Assembly (NCBI RefSeq): GCF_026571515.1
Contig: NW_026866967.1
Span: forward strand, 248,001-312,000
DNA length: 64,000 nucleotides
Source: Ruditapes philippinarum
Lineage: Eukaryota
Direction of reading: 5' to 3'
Shown here in pieces: positions 2,491 to 27,940 of this stretch. Within the stretch, counting starts at the first letter, position 1; the number at the start of each line of letters is the position of its first letter. The position numbers were made by a program, and so were the translations under genes. A model generated the notes under the pieces. That model had not been told where the DNA came from and did no database searches. It saw nothing but the letters and a program-made list of their open reading frames with translations.

Positions 2491-3770
2491 TTAATGCTTT
2501 CGAGGAATAACTTTTCACCATTTAACTTTAAATATATGCATTTTACACACAGTAGTACTTTATGGCTTGTTGAAAAAACCAAGACAACGAGGGGAAAATC
2601 ATCGACAGAAATGTCACATTAGTGTCACAACTACAAACGTCACATTCTGTCACGTGATTACAGGCCTGTGTAAACAAATTGGTTGATGACTTCTCTTATC
2701 GGACATTCGCAAATTACTCCCTTAACTTAATTATATGCTTCTCGAGATACCAAAACGGTACACAAATAGTGCTTTCCTAATAATACGGAAACCTAAAGTG
2801 TGTTTTTAAAAAAGTCGCATGACAAATTACAAATTGCCATAGACAAAGTTTTTGTTTCTCGAGAAACTTAAGAATTATTTGTTTTGTATTTTGTCTTGGG
2901 CTTAAATGAAAGTGCAGCGTGTGTTGTTTAAATGAAATAATGAAGTGATGTCATTCACATTATCCATCGTTCGGTAAAATATTTCAAACGTGTATTGAAA
3001 CTTATTCAATATTTACTGTATATGTCCAATTGGATACGGGAAGCTGTATTTCATACTACTGGTCAATACAAGTGGACCTTCTCTTACAAACAACTGGCTG
3101 TTTTTTCCCTCTGTATTGCATAAAACATTCAGCTGTAACCTGGATTGCAAGAATGTTTCAACTTTCGAAAATCGAAAATGTTTTGTTTGCTGAAGTTTGA
3201 TCATGTTTGAAAATTTAAATTTTCTAATCTTAATTTTGTCGTATATATTCACATATGTGCAGGACATAAAAGTGTTACTAAAATCAACTCTTTAATGCAG
3301 TCTGGGCAAATCAATCAGTTCTTTTAATTCCTATACGCACGTACTAAGTGTTTTAGGATGCCTGTAAATTTCAAAAGATGCTATAAATCAAATCTGTAAA
3401 ATGCAAAAAAAAAAGATATTCAGTAACACTGATGTAATCATTTTAATTTGTTTATACGAGTCTTCTTAAAACCTAACTTTCACTGGAATTAGGAGAGAAA
3501 TAAGCAATCATTATACAAATCAAGGTCAATGTTTATTCTTGTCAGTATTGACAACATCATTTGGCATCCACATTCTTCACTTCAATCACACATGTTAATG
3601 AAATCATATTAAATTGAGAGAGTTTTGTAATTTCCCAGTATTTTCCAGGCGGATTCGTTTATTGTTTTATGTCTGAAGAACCGCGCGCAACATACTTACA
3701 AAAACTTAAACATACTCTTAAGCACGATAGAACGAATTGCTATGTTTTGATTGTACAAATGGCGATAATA

Positions 3771-3880
3771 GGAGTGCGTATGTAACGCCAACACATGTGT
3801 GATCGCTTAAGCGTCAACAATTGTTTCCAAGTATCAAACATTCGGGAAATTCCGCACTTCAAACGTAACAGTTGTAGACT
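3771..3880 (+). promoter_or_regulatory. Conserved upstream element 1, copy before exon A (TAACGCCAACACATGTGT core)
   Basis: Alignable with 10258-10295, 22832-22950 and 26357-26470. Lies 1.3-1.7 kb 5' of the ATG in each cassette. Regulatory role is inferred. Confidence 0.6.
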
Positions 3881-5443
3881 CTGTAGGAAATTGCTATTTT
3901 TTCTCTCTAAAAATCTATTTTAGTGCCACGGGATTATTGTTACTAAAATGACATTATAATTATCTTTTAATTAGATATAAAACATTGGATAGTGCATATA
4001 TGACAGATTGAGATTCTTACATAATGACACGGAATTGTGGGAGTTACTATTGACGGATTTACTTCTAAGAATTAGCTATTAAATGACAATACTATTAATT
4101 GCTTCTTACACAGAAGTTTGTTCTAATTAATTAAGTTATACCCAGTGACAGGCAGAGAGTACGGAATTAATAATTTACACAAAAGGCGTACTAAGCATGT
4201 CAAATAAAAGAAACAATTCGCTAAGAATTTGTTAAACTCTTCAAACATCAATCAATAACAATAGTGGTGTGTAGCACAATTCATATACTCTAAATTAGTT
4301 GCACTAACTGCTCAGTAGGGTATAATTTGCGCTACCACTGCTTAAGCAATTATTTGACTGACTGTATTTTTTATGCAGCAGTTTGAAAAACGGATAGGAA
4401 TAGCATATGGACTGTGAATCAAAAAGAGATTGCATTCAAACATATTGTGTAGGATATCATTATTGGCAATGTGAAAGTGTCTCTAAAATTGTTAAGTATA
4501 CTTACATATACATTTATTTTCGCCATACGAGTTAAGGGAAGTAAACAAAATAAAAATAGTAAAGTTGTTATTGGTAATCCTTCAATCGGATTTGCAGAGG
4601 GTTTAGTGACCAGAATGTTTTGAGTTATGTGAAGGAAACGAACGTGAAATATGATAAGACAAGAATTGATGTAATAACATTAGCATGGGTAAGGGAAGTA
4701 CACAAGCTTTTATACTGTTCACGATAGAGTGATAAGATATATAGAGAGATTGCTATTTTCACTTCCCAGGAATGAAGATTTTCTATTTAGATCGCTAGGT
4801 AATGAGCCATTATTGCGTGACAAATTAAGGCTCATTTCCTTACGAATATTTATTAATAAGAAAACGCGAGCAGTAGAAAATAGTTTATTATATTTATAAT
4901 AAAGGATACAACCTTCTTTAATGCACTATCAGTGGACATGAGTGGGTGGATGTTTTAAATAAATCGCTTGCTCGGGAGATCTTGTCTTAATCAGTTATTT
5001 CACGTGTCGTCATGTTGAAAGTGTGTTTATCTTTAAATTTCAAATTTGTAACACATAAATAGGACATTATGACATATATGGATTTATCAATGTCTCGATT
5101 ATAAGTTTAAAAAGTGATAGCTGGCAGCAATTGACAATTAACAGTTGTATTTATTTACAAAGTTGAAGGGAAATACGGTTGGGTATAATTCTTTTAATTG
5201 AAAATCGGTGGTTTTAATCGGGCTATTTTAGGTATGCAACTGTTTCTAATTTGAAATATGTTCAAGAATCTAATTATTTCAAAGTGGTTTTAAAAATACC
5301 TATTATCTACGGAACGTATCAGATCAAACACTTACTGGATTTAAAAGGTATTTCAAACCAATATAAAGGGATAGTTAGAGCAATTATTTTATTTTAACAA
5401 TAAAAAACTATAAATAGAACATTTCAGTGCGTGTGCAGAGAAT

Positions 5444-5948
5444 ATGGATTCCGGATTTATACTAGTCATTTTTAAACTGTTTCTAGTAACAGAAATTTGT
5501 AGTCAACATTACCATAGGGAACGGACTCAACTTTACCCCATGTCCGATAAGTGTGAAATAGATCGAACTCATTTAGGTGACCATAAGATTGATATGAGGG
5601 ACGGAACGGAGGTGCAAGGTATGAAGGTAAAGTTTAAACGTTCGTGTCATCTACGGGATGTAGATGAATACCGCGGACTGAAATATGCCGAGCTTAATCT
5701 TTCAGATAAAAAGGCAATACGATTCCTTCCGAACAGAGACCTTGTCAGGCCAAAACTTAAGAAAGATAATAAAGAAAGATTTGCAACTGAGTTTAAACCT
5801 GTTTGTCCTCAAAAACTTATTGACGAAGTTAGAAAGTCATGGAATGGAATACCTGAAATAATTCTCGAAAGGCTTGTAAAAATTGGAAAGTTTACTGCTA
5901 AACAGATAGAGGCATGCCTATGGCTGAACTTGTTTGTTCCATTTAAAG
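5444..5948 (+). CDS. Variable first coding exon A: signal peptide + N-terminal part of a neuroligin-like (type-B carboxylesterase/cholinesterase-fold) protein; partial CDS ending at a phase-1 splice donor
   Basis: Hydrophobic N-terminus MDSGFILVIFKLFLVTEICS. Family motifs V-QG…VDEYRGLKYA…RFLP…FATEFKPVCPQK…QIEACLWLNLFVP (cf. neuroligin GVPYA..RF..P, ATxxxPVCPQ, QSEDCLYLNIYVP). Similarity stops at AAAG|GTAAGA (donor at 5949). Length 505 nt = 168 codons + 1. Confidence 0.88.
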
Positions 5949-6850
5949 GTAAGACTATAAACCGTATTGTACCATTAAACCTAGAACAACATGTTTTAAT
6001 ATTTTCTATGGAGACTATTTTAGGAAAAACAACATCTTTAGTAGAGAATCCACGTATTCTGAATTTAAGACGTTTTGTCCAAGTTTTTTGGTGGTAATTT
6101 ATTCAGTGACGTAAGTTATTTGATTTACAACCAACCTCCTGTTTTCTAATCTTTAACATGTGTCATTCAATAGTGAGAGACATCTTTAAAGATCCTGTAT
6201 GTTTTGTGGTTGATATTGTTACTGTGTGTATACCACACTTGCAAAAAGTTATATATGTATATAATTATGCAAATAAAATAATTTTCAAACATCGAAGAAT
6301 ATGTAAAATGTGTACTAAAACCATGAAAAAATGTGTTACAGGATCTTTAAGAAAAGGTTTACCAGTATTTCAATGCTAACTTTATATTGAATTTTGCCAT
6401 AACCACAAACAATATACTTTTAAGAGATTTTCAAACATATTGCATAGATTTCAGGCGATTAATCAGCTAGCTATCAAGTTTGTGTAAGTTCGACGAGTTC
6501 TATTTATATCAGATAATTAGGAAAACGATTGAAACATACATTTTATACATTTTCTCTTAAACCGTCTTCAAGAAAAGGTACATTGAAGCAGCTGTCATTT
6601 ATATTTTGAGTTTTATTTTCGTTAAATGTTTTTGCATGATTGTGCAAATGTTTAGCATTGGTTTACATGAACTGTTAATTATCGGGTAACAATCAATTTA
6701 AAGATGATACAATAAGATATATATTCATCAGGCATATATAAGCTATTCAAACTGTTTTCTCTTTCACTTTTGGAAATAATAATATCTAATTAACTTCTTG
6801 TCTTGACTAGCACATCTACATCACATATTACTGAGATGTCGTTGTCAAAA

Positions 6851-7087
6851 TGAGCCACGTCACGACAAAACCAACAAAGTGCGTTTGCGACCAGCATGGA
6901 TCCGGACCAGCCTGCGCATCCGCACAGTCTGATCAGGAGCCATGCTGTTCGCTTACAAACGGTATAACAAGTAGAGAAACTGATAGCGAACAGCATGGAT
7001 CCTGATCAGTCTGCGCGGATGCGCAGTCTGGTCTGGATCCATGCTGGTCGCAAACCCACTATGTTGGTTTTGTCGTGACGCGGCTCA
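6851..7087. mobile_element. Palindromic MITE-like element (~237 bp, ~100-bp inverted arms)
   Basis: TGAGCCACGTCACGACAAAACCAACA…GCTGTTCGCT (6851-6953) is a near-perfect inverted repeat of AGCGAACAGC…TGTTGGTTTTGTCGTGACGCGGCTCA (6985-7087). GC-rich insert in AT-rich intron. Confidence 0.85.
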
Positions 7088-9733
7088 AATGTCGTTATTT
7101 TGTTAGCATACTCGTAGTTGCACGAAATATGTCTATAAAAGTTGACATAATGTCATGTTAAAGCTGCCAAATGAAACTGCCATAACCCAAATCCTGTATT
7201 TTATAGTTAATATTAAATTACATACACAAAGCTATAAACGTTTGGCATTTCTTAATTTCTATTCAGAATTGTATAGGGAATACCTGTGTCATTTGCATAA
7301 TTTTATTCTGGATCGAATGATGTATATGAATAACGAAGTATAAAATGCTTTAGTTTAATGAAAATTATCTATATCTTTTTAGTAATATGATGTTATAAAG
7401 GACTGAGCTGTTGTTGAGGTTTTAATTGCATAGCAAAATAGGACAATAAAGATTAAGCAATAACAATTAATGTTAGCGCATAGAATGGTATGCGTATAAT
7501 TCTTAATGTATTTTGCAAATATTTCTTTTTTTTTGTGCTTATGCTGATATATGTCAGAAATACAAATTTTATGATTTAGGCTTTTGGATCTCAGTTGAGT
7601 TCCTTTAACAAATAAAGTGCGATTGCCAGCATAAAGTTTTTGACTCAATAATAAGACGTTTTAGAATACAGAGCTGAATTCTGGATGCATGAAATATAAT
7701 GATATAATATTTGCTGTATATCTTAATACAATTCAAATTGAATTCATACCGGGCGATCTATATATGTTTTTAAAAAAAGCTAATAATTATATTTCATTTA
7801 ACTGGTATGCGCGTTCTCAAATGATACCTAAACCATATATTTCAAAATATTTAATTTTTGTTTTTCACTGTATTATCATTTTCTTTCTCCTATATCGCTC
7901 AAAAGTATATTAATTATGGAAACGCAACATTATAATTGTGGATTATTTTTAATAAAGAATAGCTTTTAACCCTTTAGCGATAATCGTAAAATAACTTGTA
8001 AAGAAGAGTGTAATATGTTTTTTTCCGTTTTAGAGGATAACTCCCTTAAGTATTTCTTTTTTTAATCTATAAATACAAATCGTGTTTCGTAAAAGCAATA
8101 TAAACATTTTTTTTTGAAGATCGGATCAATATGTAATTGGATTTACATGTCTAGCATATCACAAAAGAAGAGTGAATATTATCTAGCTTTTCCTGACTTT
8201 TAATCGGTTATCTATTCTCAAAATAATTGACTACACCGAATAAAGGTCTAGACACTGCAATCGTTTTACAAAATGAAACATACCCTGTTTGAATAGGTCT
8301 TATTAAACTGCTAAGAGTGTACTTCTTCAACGCCAAGTCTTATCATGTTGTCCGCATGATTAACGACCTGACGTCAGGCAAATGTATACCACATTTACAT
8401 CACTACGAGAGATTCAATTTATAGATGCATCTCCCACATTAATATCATCTGCTAGCTAAAGCTTCCAAACATCTTATAATTTACAAAGCATAATCTAATA
8501 CAAAATACAATTAATCATAATTATGTTTAATAGATTAGGGGAAAATTAAGATCTAAACGAGGAAGTGTAGGGTGATTATAATTTACTTTTAAATCAATTA
8601 ATTAAATGGATGGATTTAGTAAGATGTTTGTACACCAGCAATTAATATGTGATTAAAATCTTTGCCTGTATCAATTACTCTGCATCGACCGTCTATCAAC
8701 TAAATGAAATGATTCAAATTCTTCAAAACATTTACAATTCTTACAAATATATATAGGTAAAATAAACTTACATAAGCATGAACAACATGTTTGTTAAACA
8801 TGTAAGTGATTTACAATGATTATACACAATTACAGAATTACAGAAATGAATTAGATTGGAATAAAGCATTTTAGGAAATAAATAATTCAGCTATACAAGC
8901 AAGTATATGTTGGATTTTGAATTTATTCTGCTATAATTACGATGACCAATGATAATGGTATTTTAACGAAACGATTTCGTTACCGTAAACATTCGGATAT
9001 CCGAATAAAAGGTGGTATTCATTTTCCGTTTTATTTCTGTTACATGATTTACCAATACATTGATCACGTGGTGTAAAATCCTAACGACCCGCCTTTATAA
9101 ATAGTATATATTAACGTAATTAGCTTTCTATTTGAATAGAATATAATTATATAATAAAATTCCTTTTCTTACATGTTTCACATTTATCCAAATATGCTTT
9201 ATACAAGACACTGAAATGCGTTATAAAATCCAATTTAGTTTTAGTTATTTCTTTATACGTTATCATCCTCTAGATTTCTGTCAAAATATCTGAACTTTGA
9301 TTAGATATTTTGCTTTTCCCTTTTGTCTTAATTATTCATTAAATCTTACATATATAAAACATTTGTCAAAACTTGCGTAGGAAAGATCATTTTTACTTTA
9401 TGTCATATAAAATTCATATTTCAAGCAAAATTTGCCAGCTGCACAATTAAACGAAGTAAAACTGCCAATCAAAAACCAGTGTTCAGACAAATTAGTTTCT
9501 GATATATGTATTTATTGTCAGTTAAAATAGAAGTGTTTAGACAAAAAATTCATAACAATATCAAGGAATTTATTTGCACAAAAACACGGCTGGATAAACA
9601 AATAAATTCTGAAAAGTTATTGCAGGTACTCACCATTTTATAGGAAATATTAATGTATGGAATGTTAACATAATACTTAACTTTATTACCAAAACAAAAG
9701 AAGTGCAGTTGGCTTATTATTAATAGATGGAGA

Positions 9734-9734
<1 letters not shown>

Positions 9735-9766
<32 letters not shown>

Positions 9767-9780
9767 GTTGTTGTTGTTGT
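9735..9780. repeat. (TTA)n/(TTG)n compound microsatellite
   Basis: Direct reading. Confidence 0.9.
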
Positions 9781-9830
9781 AAGGATATTTCAAACTTAAT
9801 TTTTTTTAGTTCACCTGGTTTGTAAAAAAA

Positions 9831-9919
9831 TGCACTGTAACACCGCACTTTGGGGTCAAACGCACTTTGAGGTCGGACCCCATAGTGCGTTTGACCCCAA
9901 AGTGCGGTGTTACATTGCA
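9831..9919. mobile_element. Short fold-back (hairpin) element, MITE-like
   Basis: TGCACTGTAACACCGCACTTTGGGGTCAAACGCACT / AGTGCGTTTGACCCCAAAGTGCGGTGTTACATTGCA inverted arms of ~36 bp with 1 mismatch. Confidence 0.7.
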
Positions 9920-10257
9920 CTTCACATGCTCTAAGACAATCTGTTGTTTTTTTTTATTTTTAATGAAGTTTGGGTGACATCATTATCTAGAAATATATTA
10001 ATTTGGTTGATGTGTTAATGAATCTTCACATACTTTACAATATATGAGTGCCATCTATGTAAAAACTGTATCAACGTAACGGCCATTACAATTGTACTAC
10101 CTGAGATTTATTCACTTATTTTTTAAGCCTGTTTGATATAATGGATTATAGGTCAAACGTAAAAAAAGAGATTTACAAAAGTACAGCCAAATCCAACTTA
10201 ACAACCAATAAAATTCCTGTTTTTATTGTACGGATGGTGATAATCTTATTGCGGTGG

Positions 10258-10295
10258 TAACGCCAACACATGTGTTATCGCTTAACCCATCAACG
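10258..10295 (+). promoter_or_regulatory. Conserved upstream element 1, copy before exon B
   Basis: TAACGCCAACACATGTGTTATCGCTTAA vs TAACGCCAACACATGTGTGATCGCTTAA at 3783 (27/28 identical). Confidence 0.6.
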
Positions 10296-11545
10296 GTTGT
10301 TTTATATGTCTAACAATATGACCGAACATAAGTAATATCTTCAAGACAATGCCTTTATCTTGTAGGTATTGCTTTTCTAGTAGGGAAAAAATGTCAATAG
10401 TCTTAAGAGTCTCATTCGGGATGTTTCGGGATCTTCTAGCAGAAAAAAAGACCAACACACATTTCAACAGCTTAAAGCCTTTAATGCTAAGAAGATAGGA
10501 AGTACAAAACTTAGAAAAGCCAGGAGCGAGTTCGGGAAAATTACCATCGGAATAATACTGATATTTTTCCTCGTGACGTTTTTGTCTTCTTAATAAATCA
10601 AACTGTGCAATTACTCGGATAGATTAGTTTTATGTAATTAACCGAAAGCGAAATCTTTTTTAATGACTGGTAGAGCAAACGTGTCGACATACAATGATTC
10701 CTCTAAGCTGTTAGATATAACAGATAGACACATGCATATTGAATGAAATGGAAATTGCATTCAAATTCATTATAGGAAGTTCTATTGTATCGATTCGTAA
10801 GTTTATCTTTATAAGATCGTTGCACTAATAACGTAACATTTCCACGAAATAAAGAGAGTGATAAAATGAAGAACCATTCCATTATGAGGGATAATCTATC
10901 GGGCTAGTTTTTGCTCTCAAACACCGAGAAGTTTCGCAATTGTCAGGGTAATTAACGAGATATAAGATTGACCAAGAAGAGCTTTATCACAAATATTACT
11001 GCAAGAAATTCACTCGCGTTTACATCGTTACTGGCAGTAGGATTAGATTGAAGTGATAACGGCTACCATTACATGGATACTGGAATTTTGTATTAAAGCA
11101 GATATGCAATGAGGGAATATAGCGTGATAAAATTCGCTTAATTGTGTAAAGGAAATAGTAAAGCCGGAAAAGATAGGAAGATAAAAAATGGCTTACATCT
11201 TTTCCTAAATTGAGGTATCGAAATTTTGACGATCGTATAAAAAATAGTGAAAATGTGTTATTTCAGTGATATATTTCATTTTGGCATACTTTATATGAAA
11301 ATTATGATAGTATCTTTGTTTAAGATTAAATAACATGATACATTTAATCAATAAACTACATTCAAGAAAAAAAGTTTTAACGACTTTTGCCTTTAAAGGG
11401 AGAATTTTTTATTTGGTACGATACGGTTTGTTGATTTTTGAAAAAGCGGTGGCAAAATATAAGAAAAGTAATGTTTTCTCAAAGCTGATTGCTTGGTACA
11501 TTTTACAATATTCGCCATAAATTTTTCATATATTGGCGTGCAGAC

Positions 11546-12050
11546 ATGGGCACTCAATTTATTGTATCAATTGTATTTACTTTGATAATTGAAATACAGA
11601 GTCAATATTACAAAAATGGTCAAACGCAATTTTATTCCAAGCTTTCCGGTTATTGTAAATTAGACAGAACTTATTTAGGGGATCGGAAAATTGATATGCG
11701 AGATGGAACGGAAGTTCAAGGAATGAAAGTGAAATTCAAGCCTTCATGTGGGCTACGGGATGTTGACGAGTACCGTGGACTTAAATACGCAGAACTGAAT
11801 ATTGCTGATAAGCACAGTTTGCGATTTTTACCTAATAGAGACCGAGGGCGACCTACTTCAGACAAACATAGTAGAATACAATTTGCCACAGAATATAAAT
11901 CGGTCTGCCCACAAAAACCGATGGAAGACGTTTTAAAATCATTGAAAGGAATGCCTGAAAAAATATTGGAAAAAATGGTCGAAATTGGTAAATTTACCGG
12001 GAAACAAATTGAAGGATGTCTTTGGTTAAATTTGTTTGTACCTTATATAG
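11546..12050 (+). CDS. Variable first coding exon B, neuroligin-like N-terminus (partial CDS, phase-1 donor)
   Basis: ATG at 11546, in frame with the listed ORF 11489, which starts at TTG. Signal peptide MGTQFIVSIVFTLIIEIQS. Motifs VDEYRGLKYA, LRFLP, FATEYKSVCPQK, QIEGCLWLNLFVP. Ends ATAG|GTAAGG (donor at 12051). 505 nt, same length as exon A. Confidence 0.88.
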
Positions 12051-14769
12051 GTAAGGCTAAAAGTAATTTTATGTTTATCACCAACACCTCTTACATAATT
12101 AAATTCTTTCCCAATTAGGCTAATAGACGTGTATATACGTTTGTTAAGAGGTTATGACAAAATAAGTCTGAAATAGAGTGGTTTGTTGTGTACGTTCAAA
12201 TTCGTGATATTTAAATATATTACTCAACAAATACATTGCAATGCATATTTTACTTTTGACTATATCTTTTTTTATCTCGGCATTTGCTTCCCTTGTAATA
12301 AGTTGTTATAACCACCGTTATAGCTTTTTTGCTATGTAAAATCCGATCATTTATTTTGATTTGTATTTGTTTTATTTTGGTATAATATATAGGTGTAATT
12401 TATTATTATTTCTAGACTTTTGTTTACAATCTTTTGTACTGTAAAGCGGCGTTAAGCTTTCACTTAATAATGACTTTTTATCAATTTGACAGCCCTTGAT
12501 TACATTTTAAGTGGACATGTAAGTTCGAGGATGATACTCATTTTTTTCCTTTCCTATTTTCCAAATTTAAAGTTATAAGCCTTACTCGAGTACATACTAC
12601 ATACATGATTGTGATACGATTGTATTTCAAATGTTTCTTTCGTCCATTAATTAAATACCCTATTGGTTTTACATTGGCCATGATTACTCGCGAGAGCACA
12701 TTATTATTTATTTAGAACGACGAGGTTTTCTGCTTCATGTCTTTACTTAATTGGAAATGGGACAACGCATTAAGCTGCTAGATAATCATTGTGAACATAT
12801 ATTTAGATATATCAGTTGTATTTGTTGTTTGATTTAAATCTCAAAAGGACACACACTAGAAGAAGAAAGGTTACATGACTTTCATTGTACATCATAATTA
12901 ATTAGAAATATTCTGTCACATGTTAGGTTTGAATAAAACCTACATTTTTAATAAAATGAAACATTGGTTCAAATGGTTATTGAGGTATATATTAATTGTT
13001 TAGAAGTTACATGCAACCACGTTAATACGTTCAAATGGAGAAACAAAACTTAAACATTTAAAATTCATAAACCCACACGTTATCGTTTGGAATGTAATGA
13101 ACTGCACGATTTCGTTATAAATATAATGTGTATGACCTGAAAAAGAATGAATTGTGATATGTCGCAAAGTAAAATCGTATATTTAACTATTTATGTGTCG
13201 ACGTACTATAGCAAAAACTATAATAAAGGCCCATTATGCCACAGAAATGATTTTAGTTTTATTTTCTTAAAGCTTTTTATTTCCATTGTCCTTTCATAGT
13301 TTCCAAAATGATACTCATTGGTCAAGTACCTAAAACATGTTTTGCATTTGTTGCTTTTGTTTATTAATACAGTTATAATGATATGGAAGTCAAAATACTA
13401 ATTTTTACATATTGCTACTTTTATGACAAATATTTTCACATTCAGTGCTTCTTTCGTCTGGCGATAAGTATCTAATAACATGCTCTAAAACCATTTTTTA
13501 AATATTTTAAAATAAATGTGTGCCCTTTCTAAAGACGGAAAAAAATATTCATTTCTGAGGCATAATGTTCCTTCAATACATATAATACATACAAGAAAAC
13601 TCTTTGTATAATCATTTTCAGAATATGTTTCACATGTTTTTGCCTAATGTATTTGTTTTCATTGAAGGTCTTCTTTGGTCTCTAAAATTTTTTGTATAAA
13701 TGTAATATAGTTACTATAAGTCATATTGTTTCGACAGTTTGCAGTTGAATCACAATTATTCGAGAGGCGTATCTACAAGTTTGTACTTCTTTATGTTTTG
13801 ACAATAGATGACAAGGGGTTATCTTCTTTATTATTGTAATAGTGTAATAGAATTCTGTATCTGGCAATAACACAAGTTTACAGATTAATGCTATCATGGT
13901 ATCAGTTTTGTAAATGCTAGCGATAATATTGAGTTGCTTTTGCCACAAATCTAGAATAAGGTCAACAGAATGTACCTGTGGTACTACTAAGCACTAATCT
14001 GAAAACTTTGAATTATATAAATTCTTTATATGCCATTACAAGAGGGTGAAAAAGGGTAATTTTCATTAATATTTATGGTCCAGGAAAATGCTCATTAAAA
14101 GTAACATCAATTTATACTTATCCAAGGGTACATAGTGAGTGAACCGATGACAGTAAGAATAAATTTACATTCTGCCATATTTCATTTCAGTTTTAATATT
14201 TACTCCGACGAAATGATCAATAACTCATATGGCCAGAAAAAATTTCTGTAAACATCCATCGGAATTTACTTGTAACGTTCAAATTATAAAAATGGCGGGA
14301 CATTCATTGAACATTTTTGTCAGATCTTCATTTTCCTAATCATTTTCCAATATCAACCGTTGGTCAGTCATCACTATAACAGTCGGTCTTTATTCTGCTC
14401 AAACAACTTGACCCTGAAGAAAAGAGCACAATGTCACTTCATCAATTTAACGCTAAATCTTAACTGATTCAAAGCTGTTAGAACAGTCCGTTGAAAACTT
14501 GTCCGTTACAGAATAAAAGCGAAACAGTCAATATCGGACCATTAAAACACAAGTAAGAAGAACTAAACTTATCAAAGTTTTGTTTCTACACAGCAAGTCG
14601 TAGCTATGAAATTGTACATAAATGTCATTTGGAAAACAATCGTGATGAAAAAGAAAGCGTAATATTATAAACCACATATATATAATATCATGTTATTGAA
14701 TATAAATATCAGGCAAACTGTGTCCAAAGTCACACAACTTAAGATGATATTTCTATCTTATTATTTGTG

Positions 14770-15030
14770 TTTCAAAACCGATCCAGGAGAAAAACAAATT
14801 ATATGTCTGTAGGCGAATGGATGAGTGATTCAGTAGTCAAGTAAATCGCTTAGCTGCTTTTTATCGTGTAGATACGTTTAAACGCCAAACATATAGACAA
14901 AATTCATTTAGGAGTTATTGTCATTTCTTTGCGCTTAATGTTCATGAACTGTTGGAGGTTAAGGAATTCAGTCACGTCAAGAAGGCTACGTTTTCGGATT
15001 ATATTTTTTCAAATGTGTTTTGATAATGTC
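14770..15030 (+). repeat. Paralogous non-coding block shared by the C and E cassettes (copy before C)
   Basis: GTCTGTAGGCGAA…GTAGTCAAGTAAATCGC…TATCGTGTA…AAACGCC…TCACGTCAA..GGCTAC also occurs at 25650-25910. Confidence 0.7.
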
Positions 15031-16842
15031 TTTAGGAAACACTATTATGTGAGCGGTATATCTAAATATTTTGTATTACGGTGCCAAATTAACATAGACT
15101 TTCTATGTATTTGATTGACTGTATTATAACTTCGCTAAATGACTTAACAGTAAGGTATATTATTTGACAATGTAGCACTTTTATGTTAGAGTTCTATCAG
15201 TCATTTCGTAAATGAACACGTTGTATTTTGTATCGAAACAGACTTGTCGCACTTTTAATTAAAAACGTTTGAAAGACATTTTTACTGGAAAAAAATAAAA
15301 TCAAGTTAACTATGAGTCTTCAAAATTTACGTCTTTTGTCTCTGTTCCGTTTGTGTTTATTTGTTTATTAGTCTGTGCCTTCACAATCCATGTTCAGACC
15401 TTACTTTACAGTTCTCGTGGTGAACAAAACATGCTTATGTGCTTGGACTACTTCGAGATTAATAGGCGTTTGTCTCAAACATAAAGTTATTAGGAGGCAC
15501 AATTAATCTATTTCAAGCACTTAATCTGAAATCAAAATGTCCTTATGACGGGCGAAATACTCAGTAGGCTTTGTGTTGCTATAGTGAATTCCATAATTAG
15601 ACATTCTCTTACAAAAGACGTTTTCTTTAAGTCTTTTTGTGACAGTTTAGCAAATATTGGAAGTGGACGGAGACAAATCAAATTTTTGATTATCAATTGT
15701 TATTCTGTTACAGCAAATTACCGAACAGTATATTTCGAATTAAAACACAAATTTTGAATGACACAAATTACTTAACATTACCAATTATGCCTTTAAACCA
15801 TTTTAGTAATAAATAGAATAATTACGTATCGTATAACTAAATGCAGCAAAAGCTTAACAACCTGTATTTGTGCGGAAACTGGTTTTGTAATTATTTGACT
15901 GACTGTGCTGTTAATAGGCTCCTGTAAATTACTGAAACGTTTAAAAAGATAGGTATCTGTTGTATTTATGTGTGCTATTTGTAGACTATTCATTTCCTAA
16001 TTATTGGAATCGTCTACATTTATATCTGTTGTTAATCAAATCTACCTTGGATATAGCAGCGGATTTCAATCACTTAAGAAACAACCTATAATTACAATGA
16101 TAATAATTTATTCGTTTGGTCGTCTCGTTGCAAGTATTGCCTTATGTATTAAAATATTATAATAACACGGAGATATGTCTCAGAAGATAAAATGCAGATA
16201 AAGAATCACTATCTAGAAAATAAAATTGAAAAGGGAGCGTTTATGTTTGCATTTGAATGCAGAATGTCGTATTGAAGAAGTTATATAATGAGTTTTGTGA
16301 GAGTGACAATACTAACTTCGTGGCGTTAAGCAAATAATCTAGAGCAATTGATACTTGCTGGGGACGAAGATGTTAGTTGATACCTCAGATCGTATGTTAT
16401 TTGGATAATATCCATGTGTTTATACTGTGGTTTCATAGCGGCTTTCGAATACATATTCAAATGAATTGCATCCAATTGGAGGTTGTAAAGACAATTCGAA
16501 TGACATTTGGAAGGCATGTGGATATGAATATAAATGTGATGTTCTGTACTTGACATTTTATAGTTCATCATCTTGAAAAAGGAATCAATACGTCATAATC
16601 TGACTGCCATGGAATAACACATATTCAATTTGAAAAGATCTCGGTATGCAATGGTTTTCGTAATTAACGATATTGCATCAAGCGTGGCGAAAACATGAGA
16701 AGTGACTTTGATTATTCCATATACAAATGAATTCAATTGAACAGGATATGAGGTATTTTAAAGTTAGATTACGGTTAACACATGATTATATTTAACTTTA
16801 GAGATATTTCGCAGATACTTGTCATGGAATAAATACTAAACC

Positions 16843-17323
16843 ATGCATATGTCAAATGTTTTTGGTTTTACTGTCGGATTTCTAGTGCTGTTTGAATCAG
16901 AGTTTCTAAAGACATCATCAGAACCTTTCGGTAGGGTAGATGACAATGACAAGTGTAAGCTTAAAAGAAAACTATTAGGTGATCATAAGATAACAATGCT
17001 TGATGGAACCATCCTTAAAGGAATAAAGGTCGAGTTCAGGCCAATTTGTAGTCTAAAAAATGTTAATGAGTTTCGGGGTCTTCCATACGCAGAGATCGCC
17101 AAGTCAAGGTTCATTTCGCCAAGAGATCCAGGGAGATCTCATACGAAAGTAAGACATGCTATAAATCACAAAACAGTTTGCCCGCAGAAAACTTTGGCAG
17201 AATATTTGAACACGAAGAATGAGTTACCATTAGCAATTCGTGAAAAGTATTTTAAAATAGGAAAATATATCGGTGATCAAAGTGAAGAGTGCCTTTATCT
17301 TAACATATTCGTGCCCTACAAAG
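16843..17323 (+). CDS. Variable first coding exon C, neuroligin-like N-terminus (partial CDS, phase-1 donor)
   Basis: MHMSNVFGFTVGFLVLF hydrophobic leader (start could be the ATG at 16849). Motifs VNEFRGLPYA, SRFISP, VCPQK, QSEECLYLNIFVP, the closest match to the canonical QSEDCLYLNIYVP. Ends AAAG|GTAAGT (consensus donor at 17324). 481 nt. Confidence 0.9.
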
Positions 17324-20300
17324 GTAAGTTTATGAGTGATAAATGGATGTCATAACATAATAAAAGTTTATATGACAATTTACTTTAAGATGAAATGCTT
17401 TAAGTGCAACGCAACTGTTAAGTAATTAGTTCAAAATGGATCTACTTATTCGAATATTTGTTGTAAATTATAATGCATGCAAATTCAAAAAAGTATTTCC
17501 TTTATCGACATTTCTGTTAAATCGAAAATAGAAATACAAAACTCTCCTCCTTTTTGTAACTTATTTGCTGGTAAAACCTTTCAATGACGTAATGAGGAAC
17601 TCGTAGTTAACACATTATAATCGGTGTCATTATTATTCGCAATTCAGTTTTTTACAATGTTTTGCCAATCAAGTTTTCCCTATTAACATGTTACAGTAGA
17701 AATGAACGGACTGGAATTTTAAAGCAATGACAACATGTAAAAATACTTTAATGTTGGTTCATGGATATTAAAATAACTTCCTAGTTTGGTTAAAAATACG
17801 TTTTAGATATTTTGATAGCTATTGCATGTGAAAAACCCTTTCATTTAGTACATATATAAAATCTAAATTGTTTGGACTCTGATAATCAGGAAATGTTGTT
17901 TTCTTCAGTTGACAATAGGAATAACTCCATTGCTTGTCATTTAGAGGGTCAATATTTAGTCAATATTTAATCTCACCCTTTCTAGAGCAATTGTATTTCT
18001 GACAGATGGTAAAGAAATGTTTGGCATGTATATATGAACACATCTCTGAAATATCTAGCACGATATTCACCTGTTCGTTATTTAATAACTAGAACTTAGT
18101 TGAATTTTGGCTGATGTTGGCTGTATAATTTGCCTAGAAAAGCCCAATTAATCTTTTAGATCAAATAAAATTCATATAATTACGTAATTAACGTTGTGTA
18201 CGGTTAGATTCACTTGTTAGATAAAGTATTTGAGACAAGATACGATGTCTATTTGTTTTTTATAATAGAATTAACATCTTGGGGTAGGACAAAACAGTCA
18301 TTATCGATTATCTTACAAGACAGAAATCTTTTTTCGTCTAATTAGTTGAATTATCTGTCACGTTACGATTTGTGATTTGGTGCTTTATTATTAGAAATAT
18401 ATAACTTCAGTATAATTATATAAAATCGTACAGGTATTAAACTATACTTTTCATTCTCTTCATGTTCGTTCAATTTTGCCTATGTGGAATTGTTTCATTT
18501 CATTTTTTTTTCAAAATATTATAATGTTGTCTTAAAATGGTGGGATACATATAATTATTTTTATAATACTGCTAGTCTGTAACGTCGTTTGGACTTTTAA
18601 TACATATATGAACTATAAACACGAATGATGTACATACATTTTATTGACTTAAGAGTTATCTTAATACATAACTCTTGCCCACATAACCGGACAAGATTTA
18701 GACAGGAGTTACGTTTTTTTTTTGCGAAGGAAACTGTACATTTTCGAAATTTTGTAGGGATGAAACTATTTTAAAAAGAGCCATTCAGCAGATAGTTTAT
18801 GCATACTTTTATAAATATTCTTTCATTTTTGTTATTATTCTAATGTATCAATACACAATCCATTAAAACTTTAAAAAAAATGTTCTAAATAACATACATG
18901 TGCGGTTAAACAAGTAAAAGGCACCACACTATTATTTTGATAACATTTTTGTTAAATTATGCACACTTCTTAATCGAAGTGTAAAGTAAGATTAAATGTG
19001 AATAGATATAATTGACTTGTTCTGGTGTAAGATTTATGCAATCCAAGAAGTATATGTATCTTTTTGAACGGTTAAAGTATTTGAATTATATACGCATGGT
19101 TTAATAGGATACCGTTTTTATTCAAGTCTCAAACAATAAAATGCAAAGTCAGTACAAAATATACAAAATATACTTTGATCAGGTGCTTTTCTGAAACGAT
19201 TTTTTAAATAAAAAGATATATTTAACTTTTATATATTTTGCATTTTGTAATACCATATTACAATTTAAACGAAGTATTGCATTATGCTTACACTGACCCC
19301 TTCATTGTAATTTGTGTTGATGACAATAGTTGCTTCACAACAAATGACATGTTTGCAATTTTATGAAAGGATGTATGTAAAACAGTTTATAAATATTTCA
19401 TACTATATACATGCTCATGTGTATAACAATATTCTTCTAATTTTAACGTCATATTCTTAACTTGATTCATGTACGTTTTTCCAAGGCCTACGAATAACTT
19501 TTCAATGAATACAAAAACATAAGAGTTGCGTTTGGATGTCTACCAATAGCAATAATTAATACACAACATCGTTTTAATACCATTCATAATTGGAAACAGA
19601 TGCTGCATTTAGTATCTTAACAAAGCATGTCATTGTGATGTGCGATTTTTTCCTGATTTACATGCTTTTGCAATTAAGCTTACTCATCTAAGTCATTTCC
19701 AATTGAATTGATTATACATCACCTTACACAAGGAAAATGTATTGTGTATAGAATTTGAAATGAAAGAAAGAGTTCTAGATTGTTACATGCTTTTAGTTTT
19801 CCTTTCAATGAAATGAGTAATCCTTACATAAAATCTTCAATTGTTACAAATTAGCAAATCTCTTATCATTTGGACTCCGTAATTCTTGAGCAATGTCAAT
19901 TCAAACTACTTTAGGGTCTTTTATAACGTAATGCTTGTATAATGAATTCATAACTCGAACAATATGATATTTGTCCAAAATAATTAAATGTATACATATG
20001 TCATAAAATATCTTAAGAAATGTTAGGATAAACATTAAACGATATTTTATAGCTTAAAGTTGTGTGTCATTTCACTGTCCAAAAGATTAAAGATAAAAAT
20101 ATTTCTACATATAAGTTTTGTATAATTACATTACATTTCCTTTCTTTTGGCATTTACGTCAACACTGTTTTTAATCAATTTTATCACAATTTTAAGTGTC
20201 TTATTTTACGTATATATTTATACAGACCACATAAGGCATTTGTTTTAATACAATATGGTACACGTTATTACTAAATAGTGCAAACTATTGCAGCCACGGT

Positions 20301-22831
20301 GTACTGAAATGAACATTACTCTTCTTGATTTCTTGACGAATTAGATATATGAAATATATAATTAACTACAGTTGCATAATTATGTTAAAATAAATTATGT
20401 AGTGTCAATCAAGGCAAAAACGCATTCAACTGGCAATGACATTCATTTAAAAACCTAGTCAGAACACATCAATAACACGTGAGAAAAGAGAAACATTTGA
20501 GATAAATCGTCGTAAACGTCAAACTGTTTTTACAGAGGCATTAAGTGCATTTGTAACTTCTTCTTCGTAGACATAGACATATAGGAAAAACATGATGAAT
20601 GTCATATTTGACAAGGCAAGTATGCATTGCAAAATTCTAAGAAGCTCTATTATTCTGTAATGCTTATGTATTTGGGTCAAGATTTGTGCATATGTGCAGA
20701 TGAGTTTACAGATATCTCTCGAAATGTAACACTATTTAAGGTTTTTACTAAGTTTTGTTTAAAGATATACTATTAAGCTTAAATTTGTTTTTAGAAAATA
20801 TTGTTAATTACTACTCAGTGTCTTTGTAAAAATAAAATAATCAAGTTCTGACTTCATATAAAGAAGATACATTGTATGTTATGTTTAAAGTTCTAAACAC
20901 TATAGGTGGTCACATTTTGAATATATAGTGTCATTAAAAAAAGGAAATTCTTTAAGAAAAGAGCAACTTTACTTGGCTTGTAATAAGGATCGCAGCATCC
21001 AATAGATAGATTATACATTTGTTTATTTAAACTGGACATAATCATTAAGAACTTCATTGATTTCAATAAATTATTTTTTTCCTTAAGGATGAGCTTAGTA
21101 TATCTTTAGAATAATTACACTTTCAAATGTTTTAAACAAAAAAGGTTATTTGACAAATATTTGTGGTATATGTGTATTATAATTTCAAAACAAATAAAAA
21201 AACATAATCAACCATTTATCTAGTGTTTGTAAGGATTACATTCAGCTATTATACCAAATTAGCTAAAATAGTAATATAAATGTATAATAGTATGCTATTA
21301 AAGTTTATCAATATTTACAACTTTCTGAAAAGTTTGCATAGGATATTTTTTTATAGAATATTGCATTCAATATGAATGCCACCGAACATTTTTTGACAAA
21401 TAAAAGGAAAAAGGACACTGAAAATAAGATGTTGTTTTCCTTACATTGATGTCTTTATAACAAACAGCTGCTACATCAGGCTTTTGCATACTGAAAAAGC
21501 GAACGATTGCCCTTGCATAAATATTTATCCAAATATATGCCATTCTGACACAAGTCTTTTTCCCTGAACAATCAATAAAGCATTCAGTTGTATCACTTTT
21601 ATGAGAAAGAAACATTATTGCCTCAGCTTTGAAAAATCCCATCTAGATTCATTTGCGCTTTATATCATACATGCTACGTTTCATCGATGGTCTCCCAGGA
21701 CTTCTGTAACTTATTTTCGATCTTAAACAGCGATGAAAACCCGTCCTACAAACACATTATCAAGGAGATCATGGTCTATTCAGTGGTTTTCATACAGTTT
21801 TGATCAAATGACTTAAATATGCCGGTATATAAGATTGAAGCGATAAGTTTTCTAATTATTTATTTTTTATGTAAACTAAGTAAGAAGATTTGTAGCAACG
21901 ATCTAAAATGTTCAGAATCATTCAAAAGTATAAGTATACATATGACATACCGAGCTTTTAGTTAACCATAAGCATATTAGTCCGTCTTGTTTATGTCAAT
22001 AAAATTAATTAATCGGTTGATCAAAACTTTTGATATTGTGTATTTCATATAAATGTAACAATTCAAATTAAAATCGATTAGTTAATAAGTATGAACATAA
22101 AGCCGTAGACAATTATTATTTTGCCATTCAGATTTTGCAATGTTTAGATTTATTTTTTTTTTTTTTGATTTATCTGTACAAACTAACAACGGCAGACACA
22201 AAAGAGAAACAGAACAAGTGGGTAAAATAGGCAAAACGTTAAAAGTATTTACCTAAACTTAAGTTGAAATAGACATTAGTACAATGTGTGTGAAGAAAAA
22301 GTCAACTGCTTTAATAAGAGAGGAAAAACTTTCCTTGAACATCACAACGATGTGCCGTTCTTGGAAAATCGTGGTTTGCATGTGTCTGCCGCTCATCTCA
22401 AACACGGATATTTAAGACCAATTTAAATAACGACCATATATTATCTTACGAAACTGATTCATTCCTTGAGTTAGACCCGAGAGATGAAATCAAAAGACTT
22501 TTTGTGACATTCGTGCTGAAAAATCAATGCTTTGAAAAGTAAAATGAACGTAAAATGCAATTAGTTAATATATCTGCTTAATTGAAGCAGTCTTGGGTTA
22601 GTTTCATTCTTTTTTACTCCAAATAAAAGTAAAGTCCATCTCAATAATATTCACTGTTATAAAACAAAAACAAAAAAAAACGTATGCATATAATTATACT
22701 TTGCATGCTGCAAAATACTACAATCTAGGTCTAAATCGACATAGCAAAAACATAATGTAAAGCATATAATTTCACAAAATATAAACTGGAGCAATATATG
22801 TTCAGAGTTTAATGTTGCGATTGTTTTTATT

Positions 22832-22950
22832 GCGATAATAGGAATGTGAATATAACGCCAACTAACGTGTAATAACTTTAGCATCAACAACTATTTCCAA
22901 ATATCAAGGAGTTGGCAAACATCCCACTTTAGGAATAACAGTTGCAGATT
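22832..22950 (+). promoter_or_regulatory. Conserved upstream element 1, copy before exon D
   Basis: GCGATAATAGGAATGTGAATATAACGCCAAC…CATCAACAACTATTTCCAAATATCAA…TAACAGTTGCAGA aligns with 3771-3880. Confidence 0.55.
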
Positions 22951-24312
22951 TACCGGTCTGAACTAGGAATTATATTTGTTCTTGAGAAAATATGTTCTTT
23001 TATGTAACGTATATGTTGTATATGGATAACATTAGTGAAATCATGTTGGAATGATATACTTTCAAAATGTTATATGGCTATACTTTAATGCAAAATGTGA
23101 TTAAAAGTTACAAATGTGACACGTTCTTAATTTCATTAACTGTTCAGTTTAGGACAGAAAGCATAAAAGGTCATGCCTATGCGATCAAATTTCACTCTGA
23201 TTTCAAAGACTTGATTAAAAGGCGAAGGGAAGGAATCTTAAATCTATAATAAACTGTGAAACGCTTAAATGATGAATCAATAACATTCATGCCATGGAAA
23301 CGTTTATTACATCTCCAATCTTGTTGCACTTACCGACAGTTATTGTATGATACGCGCTACAACTGGTGAAGCAATTATTTGACTAATGGTGTCTAAAAAT
23401 AGCGGTTAGAATGGCGTATGCACTTCCGATAAAATATATGTAACATTTATATATCTTCAATGATTTTTGAGGATTTTCTGGAAACAGTATTGTAAAATCT
23501 ATACCATTCCACAGAATTGGAAACAATGCGTTGGATAACCAAATAAACGAACATATTCCAGATTGTCTTTCCGATTTACGTTGTATCTGATTCTAATAAT
23601 AGTTGACAAGAATAAGGTTTGTCATGGAATGTATTTGTGCTTATATTGCCATAAACATGGATTGATATTGTCGGTAGAGACCTGTTTCCTAAATTGTGTA
23701 ACCTGCTTTGAAAGAGAACCGATGCAAATTTACTTATTTCTTTACATGAATGACGTAGTTATTTGGTGTTCTGAGACGAGTAAGGACTGGAAAAAGTTAA
23801 AACACAAAAGGATCATACTGTGTTGCATATAAAGGAGAGATTATAAAGGGTAAATATTAACGGTGTTTCATTGGTTGATATCACCAATATATTTTGCAGC
23901 TTTGGAAATAACTTTGATGTGTATCATTTAACATTTCTTTCCAAATCTTTTGTATCAGTGAATTGAAATTGATTTTTGTGTGTATGTAATTTATCAGGAC
24001 CTTGTCTAGACATATAGGGTTGTAAAATACAAATAAAAGCAACAGATTAAAATATTTGACAACCAAAAGTGCTTCATTGATGTTATAACAGATAGCATGT
24101 TAGACTTTACAAACACTGTTATCAAGGTTATGTTTGTGCAATTTATAGAATGTTTAATAGCGACGCTAAGTAACGTATATGTCAGAAAAGTACCAGAGAC
24201 AATAGAAACCTAATAAACAGTCATATTTAGTTAGTAAACCTCTTATCATTTGTAGTATCTGATTATATGTATATAAATAAAGTAAGAGCACGTGACAGAC
24301 ATCTATATAAAC

Positions 24313-24820
24313 ATGGCTAACATATCTTTTATAGTTATACTCGTTATAATATCGATTTTCAAAACTCACAGTCATTATTACCAGGAAAGTCAAAATCAGT
24401 ATAAAGGGACAGAAATCGATGTTTGTGAATTGGATAGAACTTTTCTTAGTGGCAAAAAAGTTGCTATGATTGATGGTATTAAGGTTCAGGGGTTAAAGGT
24501 TAAGTTTAAACCTATTTGTGCCCTTAAAGAAGTGGATGAGTATCGAGGAATACAATACGCCGACCTTACTAGCTATCATATGAAGAGTCTACGATTTTTA
24601 CCAAACAGACAACGTGGAAAATCTGTAACAAATACTATAAACAATGAACGATTCGCCACACAACATAAACCAGTGTGTCCCCAAATGTTTATGGATGAGG
24701 TTATTAAGTTCCATAAAGGTCTGCCTGAAGAACTACGTGCCAAGTTGTCTAAACTTGGAAATTTTACGAAAAAGCAAACTGACGGGTGCCTTTGGCTAAA
24801 TCTTGTTGTTCCCGAAAAAG
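24313..24820 (+). CDS. Variable first coding exon D, neuroligin-like N-terminus (partial CDS, phase-1 donor)
   Basis: ATG at 24313. Signal peptide MANISFIVILVIISIFKTHS. Motifs VDEYRGIQYA, LRFLP, FATQHKPVCPQ, QTDGCLWLNLVVP. Ends AAAG|GTAAGG (donor at 24821). 508 nt. Confidence 0.88.
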
Positions 24821-25649
24821 GTAAGGATGGTCTTAAAATGTATTAAAATGATTATAAAATCCCTAGTGTGACATGTACTCTAAATGCGCTTGTAACTGTA
24901 AAGAGTACCAGACTACTAAATTTGGTTTTGCATAGAAATAAATAAATGCGCACATTTATCGGTAAAGAAACGCATTAACACATTGTCTTATACTAACTGT
25001 TTTCAAATAATTATGTTGTTATATGATCTTCTTTTTTCATCCATTTCTTTTCATTCAGCAACATCTTGCATTAAAATTTACATTTCATATAAACTGTCAT
25101 TGTCTTAGGTTCATGTGTTATGTCTAGACATAATAATTTAAAAGTCTCTGAATCAACGTGCTTTTACAAATTGAAGATGAACATCAAATATCCATAGAAA
25201 ATGTAAAGCATTTAATCCTACTTGGCCTACCTTTTCGTTTAATAAGAAGCTCTAAATTTGAACATGATTGAAAGTCAGATAAGCATAAAATGCCTTAATA
25301 TATAAATTTGTTCTAGCCATTGATTTAAACGTTGCGTCTATCTGGATAAACACTGTGCATTTCTACGACAAGTTTTACAATGTTAATTAAGTTAAACTGG
25401 AACTACTTGAAAACAAAAATAAACGTCTAAAACAGCTACAGCTAGAGCTGTTTAAATCGTTATTTTTTCTATCAAGGTATGCTTTTATCACTTTTGTAAG
25501 TTCATGTAAAGTGGTGTTCATTAGTATTTTACATTCTACTTTTTAAATTCATAGACTAGTTCTTATTTGATTTTTCTATCCATTTAATTAAAAATATAGG
25601 TATTAAGTAGCAAGCGGAGAAGAAAGCTTTATCTCATAAAACGGATTTT

Positions 25650-25910
25650 CAAGACAGATTCGGGAAAAAACAAATAATCTGTCTGTAGACGAACGAATCA
25701 GTGTTTCAGATAAACTCGTAGTCAAGTAAATCGCGAGCACTTCTTCTATCGTGTAACCACTTTTACAAACGCCGTAAATATAGATTTACTTCTTTAAGGA
25801 TATATAATAAGTTCTGTAGTTTATTGTCTGATGAATGTTAATGAAGTCTTTCACGTCAACTCGGCTACACATTTGGAATATAATTTTATGTTGTGCTTTG
25901 AAAAAGTTTA
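25650..25910 (+). repeat. Paralogous non-coding block shared by the C and E cassettes (copy before E)
   Basis: Same motif order as 14770-15030, including identical GTAGTCAAGTAAATCGC. Confidence 0.7.
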
Positions 25911-26356
25911 TGGTTTTAAATACATTTGGCTCGAAGAAGCGTCAAATGATGTAGAGACTTGTTGCTCTCTATAAATGAAACAATTAAGTCAAGCGCATAA
26001 TTTCTTGAAATATTAATCAAACATATTGGCTACACAGAGCAACTAAAAAACTATAAAATCGCTCCTATTTGGTCAATACGGATTTTAGATGCACAATAGA
26101 GGTAATAAACCCATTTCTAAAAAAAATAATCAAGACAGGGGTGTCGGCATTATTGTAATTAGTAATGTTCGTACTCAAACAATGGAAAGTTATGCTAAGG
26201 AATTTTCAACATAACGTTCTAGGTAATTTACAAGTATTTTGTATTGTCGATCCATTTGTTGTTTCATGTCGACGGAATAGCGAGTACTAAAATGTGAAAT
26301 GCTTTAACAAGTGTGCTTGAGGATTATAGTGTTTTGATTGTATTTATGGTGCTGTT

Positions 26357-26470
26357 TGGAGTACACATATAACGCAAACACATGTGTTATCACTTAAGTC
26401 TCTGACAATTGTTTCCAAATATCTTGCAGCTCGGAAGTAACTTTTAACTTACTTGTAACAGTTGCAGATA
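26357..26470 (+). promoter_or_regulatory. Conserved upstream element 1, copy before exon E
   Basis: TAACGCAAACACATGTGTTATCACTTAA…ACAATTGTTTCCAAATATC…GTAACAGTTGCAGA aligns with the A and D copies. Confidence 0.6.
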
Positions 26471-27940
26471 TGCCATTTTTTACTACGGTTAAGCAACGAT
26501 CGATACCTAGAGAACGGATAACACACAGAAAGGATTTAATGATTGCTTAAAAAAAATACTCATTCTAAATAAGTTTTATTGAGTTATTAAATATGATGTG
26601 TAAAAGGAAATAGTTAGTAGTGTGATAAAAATATCTGTTCATTTTGAATAAAACTTATATTTGCAGTGTCAAAAAATTTCAGTGAATTAAAGAAAATGTT
26701 AACAACACTAGGGCAATTGTAACTGGTGAAAACCTATAGTAAGAATTTATTTGTCATTTAAATAAATTGATCTATTGAATTGCTGTTCGCAAAATTTGAA
26801 GAAAAAAACTCTATATATCGCTACTTGATAGATTAGTATCAATATTGTTTATGGAAAAAATATCTGATATATCTTATATAAAATCGTTGCTGTAAACAAA
26901 ATAGAAACAAATTATTCTACTAAATGTACGAGTGGTACAGAAGAGAAAACGGCTTATAAATGATAATATATTGGAGTTACTAGTGGTTTCTTATAGACCG
27001 GGAATAGTTTTGTATTTGTGAGGATAATTAACGAGATGTATGATTGACCATGAGAAGCCTTATCCAGTAATTCATTGTAGCTCAAATCTGTAGGAGCAGA
27101 GGAATGAGATATAATGATAGAAGATAACCGTTTATCCGCGCTGCTTTTGAAAGTATAACTTAGTATTGAAGAACTCTGTAATGGGGCATGTTAGCGTGAC
27201 AAGAAATTCCTCTTTGTGTAGCACAAATAATTCACAGCATTTGATAAAGAGCAAAGAAAGAGAAAACGGATATTTCACGTAGTTTCACCGAAGGATTAAA
27301 GTGAATGTTTCAGATGTTTCATATATTCCTAGTGTTCGGATAGAACTATTTTCAAGAAAAAAGAAAATAATCTTAAGAAATTTCTTAATCATACATCAAC
27401 TTGACATAACGAATACATAATAGTGTTTACATGTCTGATGGATCGTCGACGAATATGTTTACATTTACCCAGCGCTTTGTTCACTTGTATTCTAAATATA
27501 GTCGTATGTCATCACTCTGAGGTAGGTCTAGACAAACCATTACACATACAATTTTGACTGTCACTTGTTCAATCAGTTCGATTCAATTCAACAATTTGAT
27601 AAAAAAATATACAAAAACATGGAAATATGAGTACTTATTATAACGTCGAAACAGTGGAGGAAGTGGAATTTGAGGTGTTATATAGAAGTAAAAACGAGTT
27701 TGAAATGGAGTAAAATAAATCAACAATGAAAACTATTCCGTTCACAATAATTGTATTTGTGCTATATGTCTGTTGTATCATTTACAAATGCTAAAGCTGC
27801 TCTTGCTTTATCTTATGTGAATTGTGTTCACATTTTGAAGAAGTATAAACATAAATAGAGCATTTTTAATAATAGAAATAAACGCTGGCTTGGTGCAATG
27901 CCAAATCATTCACACGTGAAAGTAATGTAACTTAACGATA

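Follow-up and report, generated by a model that had tools for sequence, protein, structure and literature searches.

A conserved 28-bp element upstream of four of five likely neuroligin first exons in the clam Ruditapes philippinarum

Introduction

What does a short sequence do that recurs ahead of each of several similar exons in a row? The question is raised by a stretch of 64,000 nucleotides from the clam Ruditapes philippinarum (contig NW_026866967.1, positions 248,001 to 312,000, forward strand), here called the window and numbered from its first letter, in which five related coding cassettes, A to E, follow one another and a 28-bp motif lies upstream of most of them. The original prediction assigned to this motif the role of the conserved sequence element (CSE) of the clustered protocadherins, which is described, in part of PMC3333863, as an element of ~22 bp found in every variable-exon promoter, needed for transcription and bound by CTCF, and in part of PMC7811963 as carrying a CGCT box at a similar distance to each start codon, with a few members lacking it. 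We find that the motif is real in four of the five cassettes. Judged from the sequence comparisons below, it is old and under selection, and it stands at likely promoters of a neuroligin gene with variable first exons.

Results

The element is located at 3783-3810 in cassette A, 10258-10285 in B and 26370-26397 in E, in each case on the plus strand, and the pattern originally given for these three places fits them with 0 mismatches, compared with 0 matches in 100 shuffles. Identity at the motif is 27/28 between A and B, as had been stated, 25/28 between A and E, and 26/28 between B and E. The copy reported upstream of D (22853-22880, plus strand) proved to be a genuine, diverged one, with 21/28 identities to each of A, B and E and a score of 23.0 with a matrix derived solely from A, B and E, the next-best background score being 11.7; 20 of the 28 columns are invariant across the four copies. 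No further full copy is present in the 64-kb window. All four are on the plus strand and lie 1288-1661 nt 5' of a cassette ATG (1661 nt in A, 1288 in B, 1460 in D and 1571 in E, the distances first reported), and the rough chance of this pattern of positions and strand is 5e-8. The test for a dispersed repeat, applied within the 64 kb, thus returned the motif solely upstream of cassettes, with 0 unlinked full copies. A weak profile match at 56229-56294 (E 0.0066) was discarded, being without the core.

The palindromic core that had been described measures 10 bp in A (3791-3800) and 12 bp in B and E, and is absent in D, where both ends of the element are kept; the E-box CACATG within it is likewise found in three of the four copies and missing from D. 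The 10-bp palindrome occurs solely at the three places in A, B and E. By itself, a palindrome says little here, because the window holds 195 perfect ones of at least 10 bp, along with 29 CACATG sites.

Conservation was assessed with an ungapped pairwise 28-mer test, as global alignments with cheap gaps inflate window identities. Among ungapped non-coding 28-mers, the motif ranks first for A/B, A/E and B/E (27, 25 and 26 identities), which upholds the claim that it exceeds the paralogous background; the shuffle maximum for the same three pairs is 20-22 (8 shuffles per pair) and the best coding window reaches 22-24. In pairs involving D, the motif is no better than the remainder of the block that surrounds it. 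In the exons, four-fold degenerate sites have reached saturation (12/35 identical in A/B; range 0.19-0.50 over 10 pairs), so that the 27/28 identity of A and B is not a neutral leftover. The chance of such a 27/28 window is 8e-9 at a neutral identity of 0.34, and 3e-3 at the aligned-leader identity of 0.55.

The 28-mer is the peak of a paralogous block of ~140 bp around each of the four copies. On the plus strand, this block spans 3742-3878 in A and 22809-22948 in D, both supported by BLAST and by a profile, and 10215-10357 in B and 26327-26468 in E, delimited by the profile. BLAST aligned 3742-3878 with 22812-22948 (A/D; 137 bp, 73% identity); the A/E alignment is 94 bp long with 79% identity, and that of A/B 85 bp with 80%. 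The profile recovered the four places and no further full copy in 64 kb. The surrounding DNA had been called barely alignable, which was overstated in view of this block and of weaker homology along the leaders, i.e. the stretches between motif and ATG, where further blocks follow the motif at ~550 nt (A, C, D), 650-690 nt (B, E) and 800-1010 nt. A second conserved leader block is found at 4329-4365 in A, 15872-15905 in C and 23354-23385 in D (24-25/28 in pairs with A), and a third at 10945-10972 in B and 27021-27048 in E (25/28). As to repeats, read depth marks high-copy ones between the cassettes at 6185-6330, 6850-7093, ~9870, 13224-13550, ~14340 and 20800-21100, and self-BLAST detects other dispersed ones in 32-61 kb.

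Cassette C lacks the motif. A weak remnant had been placed at 15417-15446, which we could not substantiate: identity is 7/28 at 15417 and, at neighbouring offsets, does not exceed 13/28 (to B), the top matrix score within 14900-15900 ranks 264 of 127,946 positions, and the block profile finds nothing in that region. An alignment anchored on blocks common to C and E sets the spot orthologous to the element at 15470-15500 (plus strand), with no significant copy remaining; shuffle p for the match at 15470-15500 ranges from 0.10 to 0.92 over the four query copies. C is also the longest branch of the five in the protein tree described below (0.73 vs 0.09-0.20). A non-coding block of ~300 bp is common to C (14736-15031) and E (25612-25909; E-value 4e-22) and absent from A, B and D; it lies 460-760 nt upstream of the motif in E and is a candidate for a clade-specific enhancer or for a promoter element of C's own.

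A tree was built for 27 first-exon proteins, in which each of A, B, D and E has its own database protein as a strongly supported partner, and E falls into a clade apart from A, B and D, in which it groups with C. The motif is therefore older than the splits between A, B, D and E. The cassette duplications thus appear to be old, and the motif common to A, B and E would span the deepest split of the five.

Each cassette encodes a hydrophobic N-terminus, judged by eye to be a signal peptide, followed by ~150 residues of a carboxylesterase-family domain, and each ends in a phase-1 GT donor (after 5948, 12050, 17323, 24820 and 28417). On the plus strand, the likely first exon A covers 3781-5948, including a long leader seen in RNA contigs, with its ATG at 5444. 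The transcribed part of first exon B covers 10506-12050, with its ATG at 11546, and the coding parts of C, D and E are 16849-17323, 24313-24820 and 27941-28417, respectively; C has an extra in-frame ATG at 16843. Relative to its unbroken orthologue P0003, cassette E carries a one-base frameshift near 28200, either an assembly error or a null allele, and its motif is well kept.

Neuroligins make up 14 of 15 PDB matches of exon C, and the full-length protein P0166 matches neuroligin with an E-value of 4e-107, vs 1e-57 for acetylcholinesterase. No esterase exon past residue ~169 was found anywhere in the window, so there is none between the cassettes, which accordingly form a tandem row of first exons, each with a signal peptide and a donor of the same phase, uninterrupted by downstream exons. 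The more than 35 kb from 28420 to 64000 hold no neuroligin exon and are likely the first part of a very long intron that precedes the shared exons.

Those close relatives that have a name belong to Dreissena, Mactra and Mercenaria, all of them clams; no longer relative emerged from a single-protein search. Four RefSeq isoforms of Mercenaria mercenaria annotated as neuroligin-4-like X1-X4 (XP_045200612.2 to XP_045200615.2) share 758 identical C-terminal residues and differ in their 147-176 N-terminal residues, with the junction at the point where the exons in the window end. The tree places X2 together with A and B, and X3 together with C and E; X1 and X4 have no counterpart in the window. It is thus likely that the five tandem first exons splice to one shared body. 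The proteins P0002 (D-like) and P0003 (E-like) are both encoded on ENA contigs with a length of 11,842, probably one and the same, which suggests that another clam preserves the tandem order.

RNA data were available for the region 2800-22700 (A-C) from four runs, three of which, X17 and X19 among them, were taken as RNA by guess. For the placing of boundaries, we excluded the raw-read run X24, which has a depth near 1, equal cover of exons and introns, and no start sites, and X15, which has contigs in introns. The contigs of X17 run unbroken over 4178-5948 in A and are listed as the pieces 10506-11523 and 11749-12050 in B, and the depth of this run is 0 in the bin with motif A and in the bin past donor B. 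Those listed for X19 cover 3781-5916 with two gaps, the first (depth 2.1) ending at 3781, two bases before the motif. From the cover by X17 and X19, we conclude that the leaders are long and exonic, and that the transcribed region has its 5' edge at motif A or close to it, which places the motif elsewhere than in remote intergenic DNA. RNA-contig depth climbs near the A and B blocks, and no joint upstream of them is listed; contigs cannot show starts, and we infer that transcription begins near the motif. The leaders measure 1.3-1.7 kb (3783-5443 in A, the others alike) and contain 24-38 ATGs each, with upstream frames of up to 39-67 residues; strong translational damping by these ATGs and frames is possible.

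At donors A and B, the X17 contigs overhang by 26 and 28 letters, respectively, that cannot be placed in the window. Neighbouring contigs overlap by 30 letters, and the exon-end suffix in common is 4 letters for A with C or D and 2 for B with any other. With one shared acceptor, the predicted overhang, 30 minus the suffix, is 26 for A and 28 for B, and both agree with the observed lengths. An unspliced acceptor would, however, also explain the overhang of B taken alone. The overhang lengths point to an exon 2 that would be common to the cassettes in this species; since the X17 depth over C is 0, A would be paired either with D or with an exon that lies beyond the window.

Which protein might bind the element was approached from what all four copies have kept: the left end, GTGTNA on the right, and some bases past it. 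Read in the minus-strand direction, the right half gives TNNCAC in 4/4 copies, and for this reason a T-box-type protein is the likeliest candidate binder, followed by a bHLH dimer that would sit on two overlapping E-boxes in three of the four. TNNCAC is a core used for Brachyury sites in part of PMC3812116, and T-box half-sites appear in parts of PMC4010391, as AGGTGTGA, and of PMC3485041. At the four copies, there is neither a full AGGTGT half-site nor a canonical T-box pair, the AGG flank being imperfect and the left half deviating. The inverted pair TNNCRC-N8-GYGNNA has 6 sites in the window including all four copies, from which the pattern itself was derived. A CTCF site was considered and rejected: the best match at the copies to a CTCF consensus, 8-10/14, equals background, 763 sites in the window reaching 9 and 145 reaching 10.

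Discussion

What, then, is the element for? Our preferred answer, which we hold to be moderately probable, is that it is a promoter-proximal site for a sequence-specific factor, common to alternative first exons that splice to a shared body. On this account, the 28-mer was copied with each cassette and has been kept by selection close to, or at, the probable start of transcription of four first exons, where a transcription factor would recognise it and turn on each alternative promoter. The chosen first exon would then likely be spliced to one set of shared downstream exons. With one activator in common, the isoforms would follow the same cell-type programme, and the promoters of C and D, where the site is lost and eroded, respectively, would be free to diverge.

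Several observations weigh against this proposal. Cassette C has an intact reading frame without the motif. The 5' edge at 3781 is given by a single contig with a depth of 2.1, and contigs show neither the true start nor the strand; should the X19 contig represent sense mRNA, the transcript includes the motif. No TATA box was found 45-15 nt upstream of any of the four copies. No copy is present in two distant bivalve-like loci, for which 6 kb and 2.2 kb of upstream sequence could be examined (best E 5.1); these came from the second of two metagenome scans, which gave 5 loci (the 2 bivalve-like ones and 3 GC-rich, unrelated ones), none with the motif, the first scan having come back empty. As to the factor, the right halves fit AGGTGTGA at only 6-7 of 8 positions, a level equalled by 413 sites in the window; the left half reads TNNCGC, a change counted as a disrupted site in the consulted part of PMC3812116; and the T-box idea was picked after the four copies had been seen, TNNCAC being a weak and common pattern.

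The element could also act at the RNA level: standing at the 5' end of a long leader, it would serve as a signal for protein binding or for translational control. The motif does lie within one X19 contig, other conserved blocks are inside the transcribed leader, and each leader has 24-38 ATGs. Against this, the copies have no shared fold (a consensus energy of -4.5 kcal/mol, the covariation term being unfavourable), the single-strand z-scores are unremarkable (-0.63, -1.44, 0.46, 0.17), a search of 1-30000 against Rfam with E up to 1 gave no match, X17 has no depth over motif A, and dyad symmetry would fit double-stranded DNA; we consider this explanation unlikely. Non-functional similarity, through a short gene-conversion tract among paralogues or an old piece of a repeat copied with the cassettes, would account for A, B and E being closer to one another at the motif than the exon tree predicts, in which E groups with C, and at the 67% identity of the coding sequence, one 27/28 window in ~2000 would not be improbable (0.4). 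It is at odds with the chance values of 8e-9 and 3e-3 obtained with neutral and aligned-leader identity, with three copies that lie up to 22 kb apart, each in a graded block of ~140 bp, and with an RNA-run depth of at most 3.8 in the bins of motifs A and B, vs tens to more than 100,000 at repeats in the window. Nor did the index of scanned sequences yield any look-alike of the block or of the protein. We give it little credence, and slightly less than the RNA-level role.

There remains the comparison with the protocadherins taken literally, in which the motif would be a true functional analogue of the CSE: an architectural anchor other than CTCF, through which an enhancer loops to one promoter at a time and the choice is made cell by cell. 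Every copy has the same orientation and a similar spacing, the gene is a synaptic adhesion gene with tandem first exons and a distant shared body, CGCT, the letters of the CSE box in part of PMC7811963, is present in A and B, and C is without the motif, as some protocadherin promoters are without a CSE according to the same part of the literature. However, there is no CTCF-like match, CGCT is missing in D and E, the window has five cassettes only, and most of the ectodomain is constant. A full analogue of this kind seems to us quite unlikely. It is similarly doubtful, though worth stating, that clams independently evolved protocadherin-like promoter choice on a neuroligin by means of a CTCF-independent dyad element, such that a cell-by-cell choice of the N-terminal lobe, including its Cys loop, fused to a constant body, would give neurons distinct synaptic tags.

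Of the CSE-like role first proposed, what stands is that the motif is conserved, specific to the cassettes and situated at what is likely the promoter end of alternative first exons in tandem; it is not in all five cassettes, E-box and palindrome are not its conserved core, and the CTCF test failed. By analogy, the clam element probably works like a CSE in a broad sense, but, the sequence test for CTCF having failed, it is not a member of that class. The likeness to what parts of the cited papers say of the CSE is that of a short element which recurs, with comparable spacing, ahead of the start codons in a tandem row of variable first exons of a neural adhesion gene, with some members lacking it. 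In contrast to the ~22-bp CSE with its CGCT box and CTCF, the clam motif is 28 bp long, AT-richer and dyad-symmetric, and has CGCT in 2/4 copies. Unlike the CSE, it is separated from the ATG by a long leader, at a distance of 1.3-1.7 kb; the variable exon comprises a signal peptide and ~150 residues, whereas that of protocadherins comprises the whole ectodomain; and there are five such exons in the window as opposed to dozens in protocadherin clusters.

Arrays of variable first exons are already known from protocadherins, chelicerate sDscam and some enzymes. sDscam is similar in being an invertebrate adhesion gene with tandem 5' cassettes that have their own promoters and are joined to common exons, and differs in belonging to the Ig superfamily and in having cassettes of two or four exons (PMC4835542, in part); its promoter elements are described as predicted in the main text of that paper, where the words 'motif' and 'conserved sequence' have 0 occurrences. 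The clusters of multiple variable first exons of UGT1 and GCNT2 are similar in that tandem first exons alter the N-terminal part of one folded domain, but, unlike the clam neuroligin, these are vertebrate enzymes (PMC1885805, in part). The closest parallel, in family and in the position of the junction, is neuroligin-4-like of Mercenaria, and since X1-X4 share the family, the junction and the groupings in the tree, the architecture is already implicit in the automated annotation of that species. In the open literature, excluding subscription journals and supplements, we found no paper on a variable-first-exon array in a neuroligin or on a mollusc neuroligin locus, and in the part of the review of wiring receptors PMC10084454 that we consulted, no such neuroligin layout appears and molluscs are not mentioned.

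In neuroligins, the Cys loop is part of the MDGA-binding Site II, and the neurexin-binding residues lie within 291-394 (PMC5563082). Mapped onto the clam gene, the variable exon likely carries the Cys loop, with the neurexin-binding residues in the constant part. Therefore, promoter choice could tune the binding of partners while leaving the neurexin site untouched. Most of the interest of our findings comes from the locus, and the motif is a practical way into its regulation: 28 bases offer a handle for finding the factor, with D, where the site is eroded, and C, where it is lost, as natural controls. Should the element be only a site for a shared activator, it would still be a tidy example of promoter conservation at a newly described locus.

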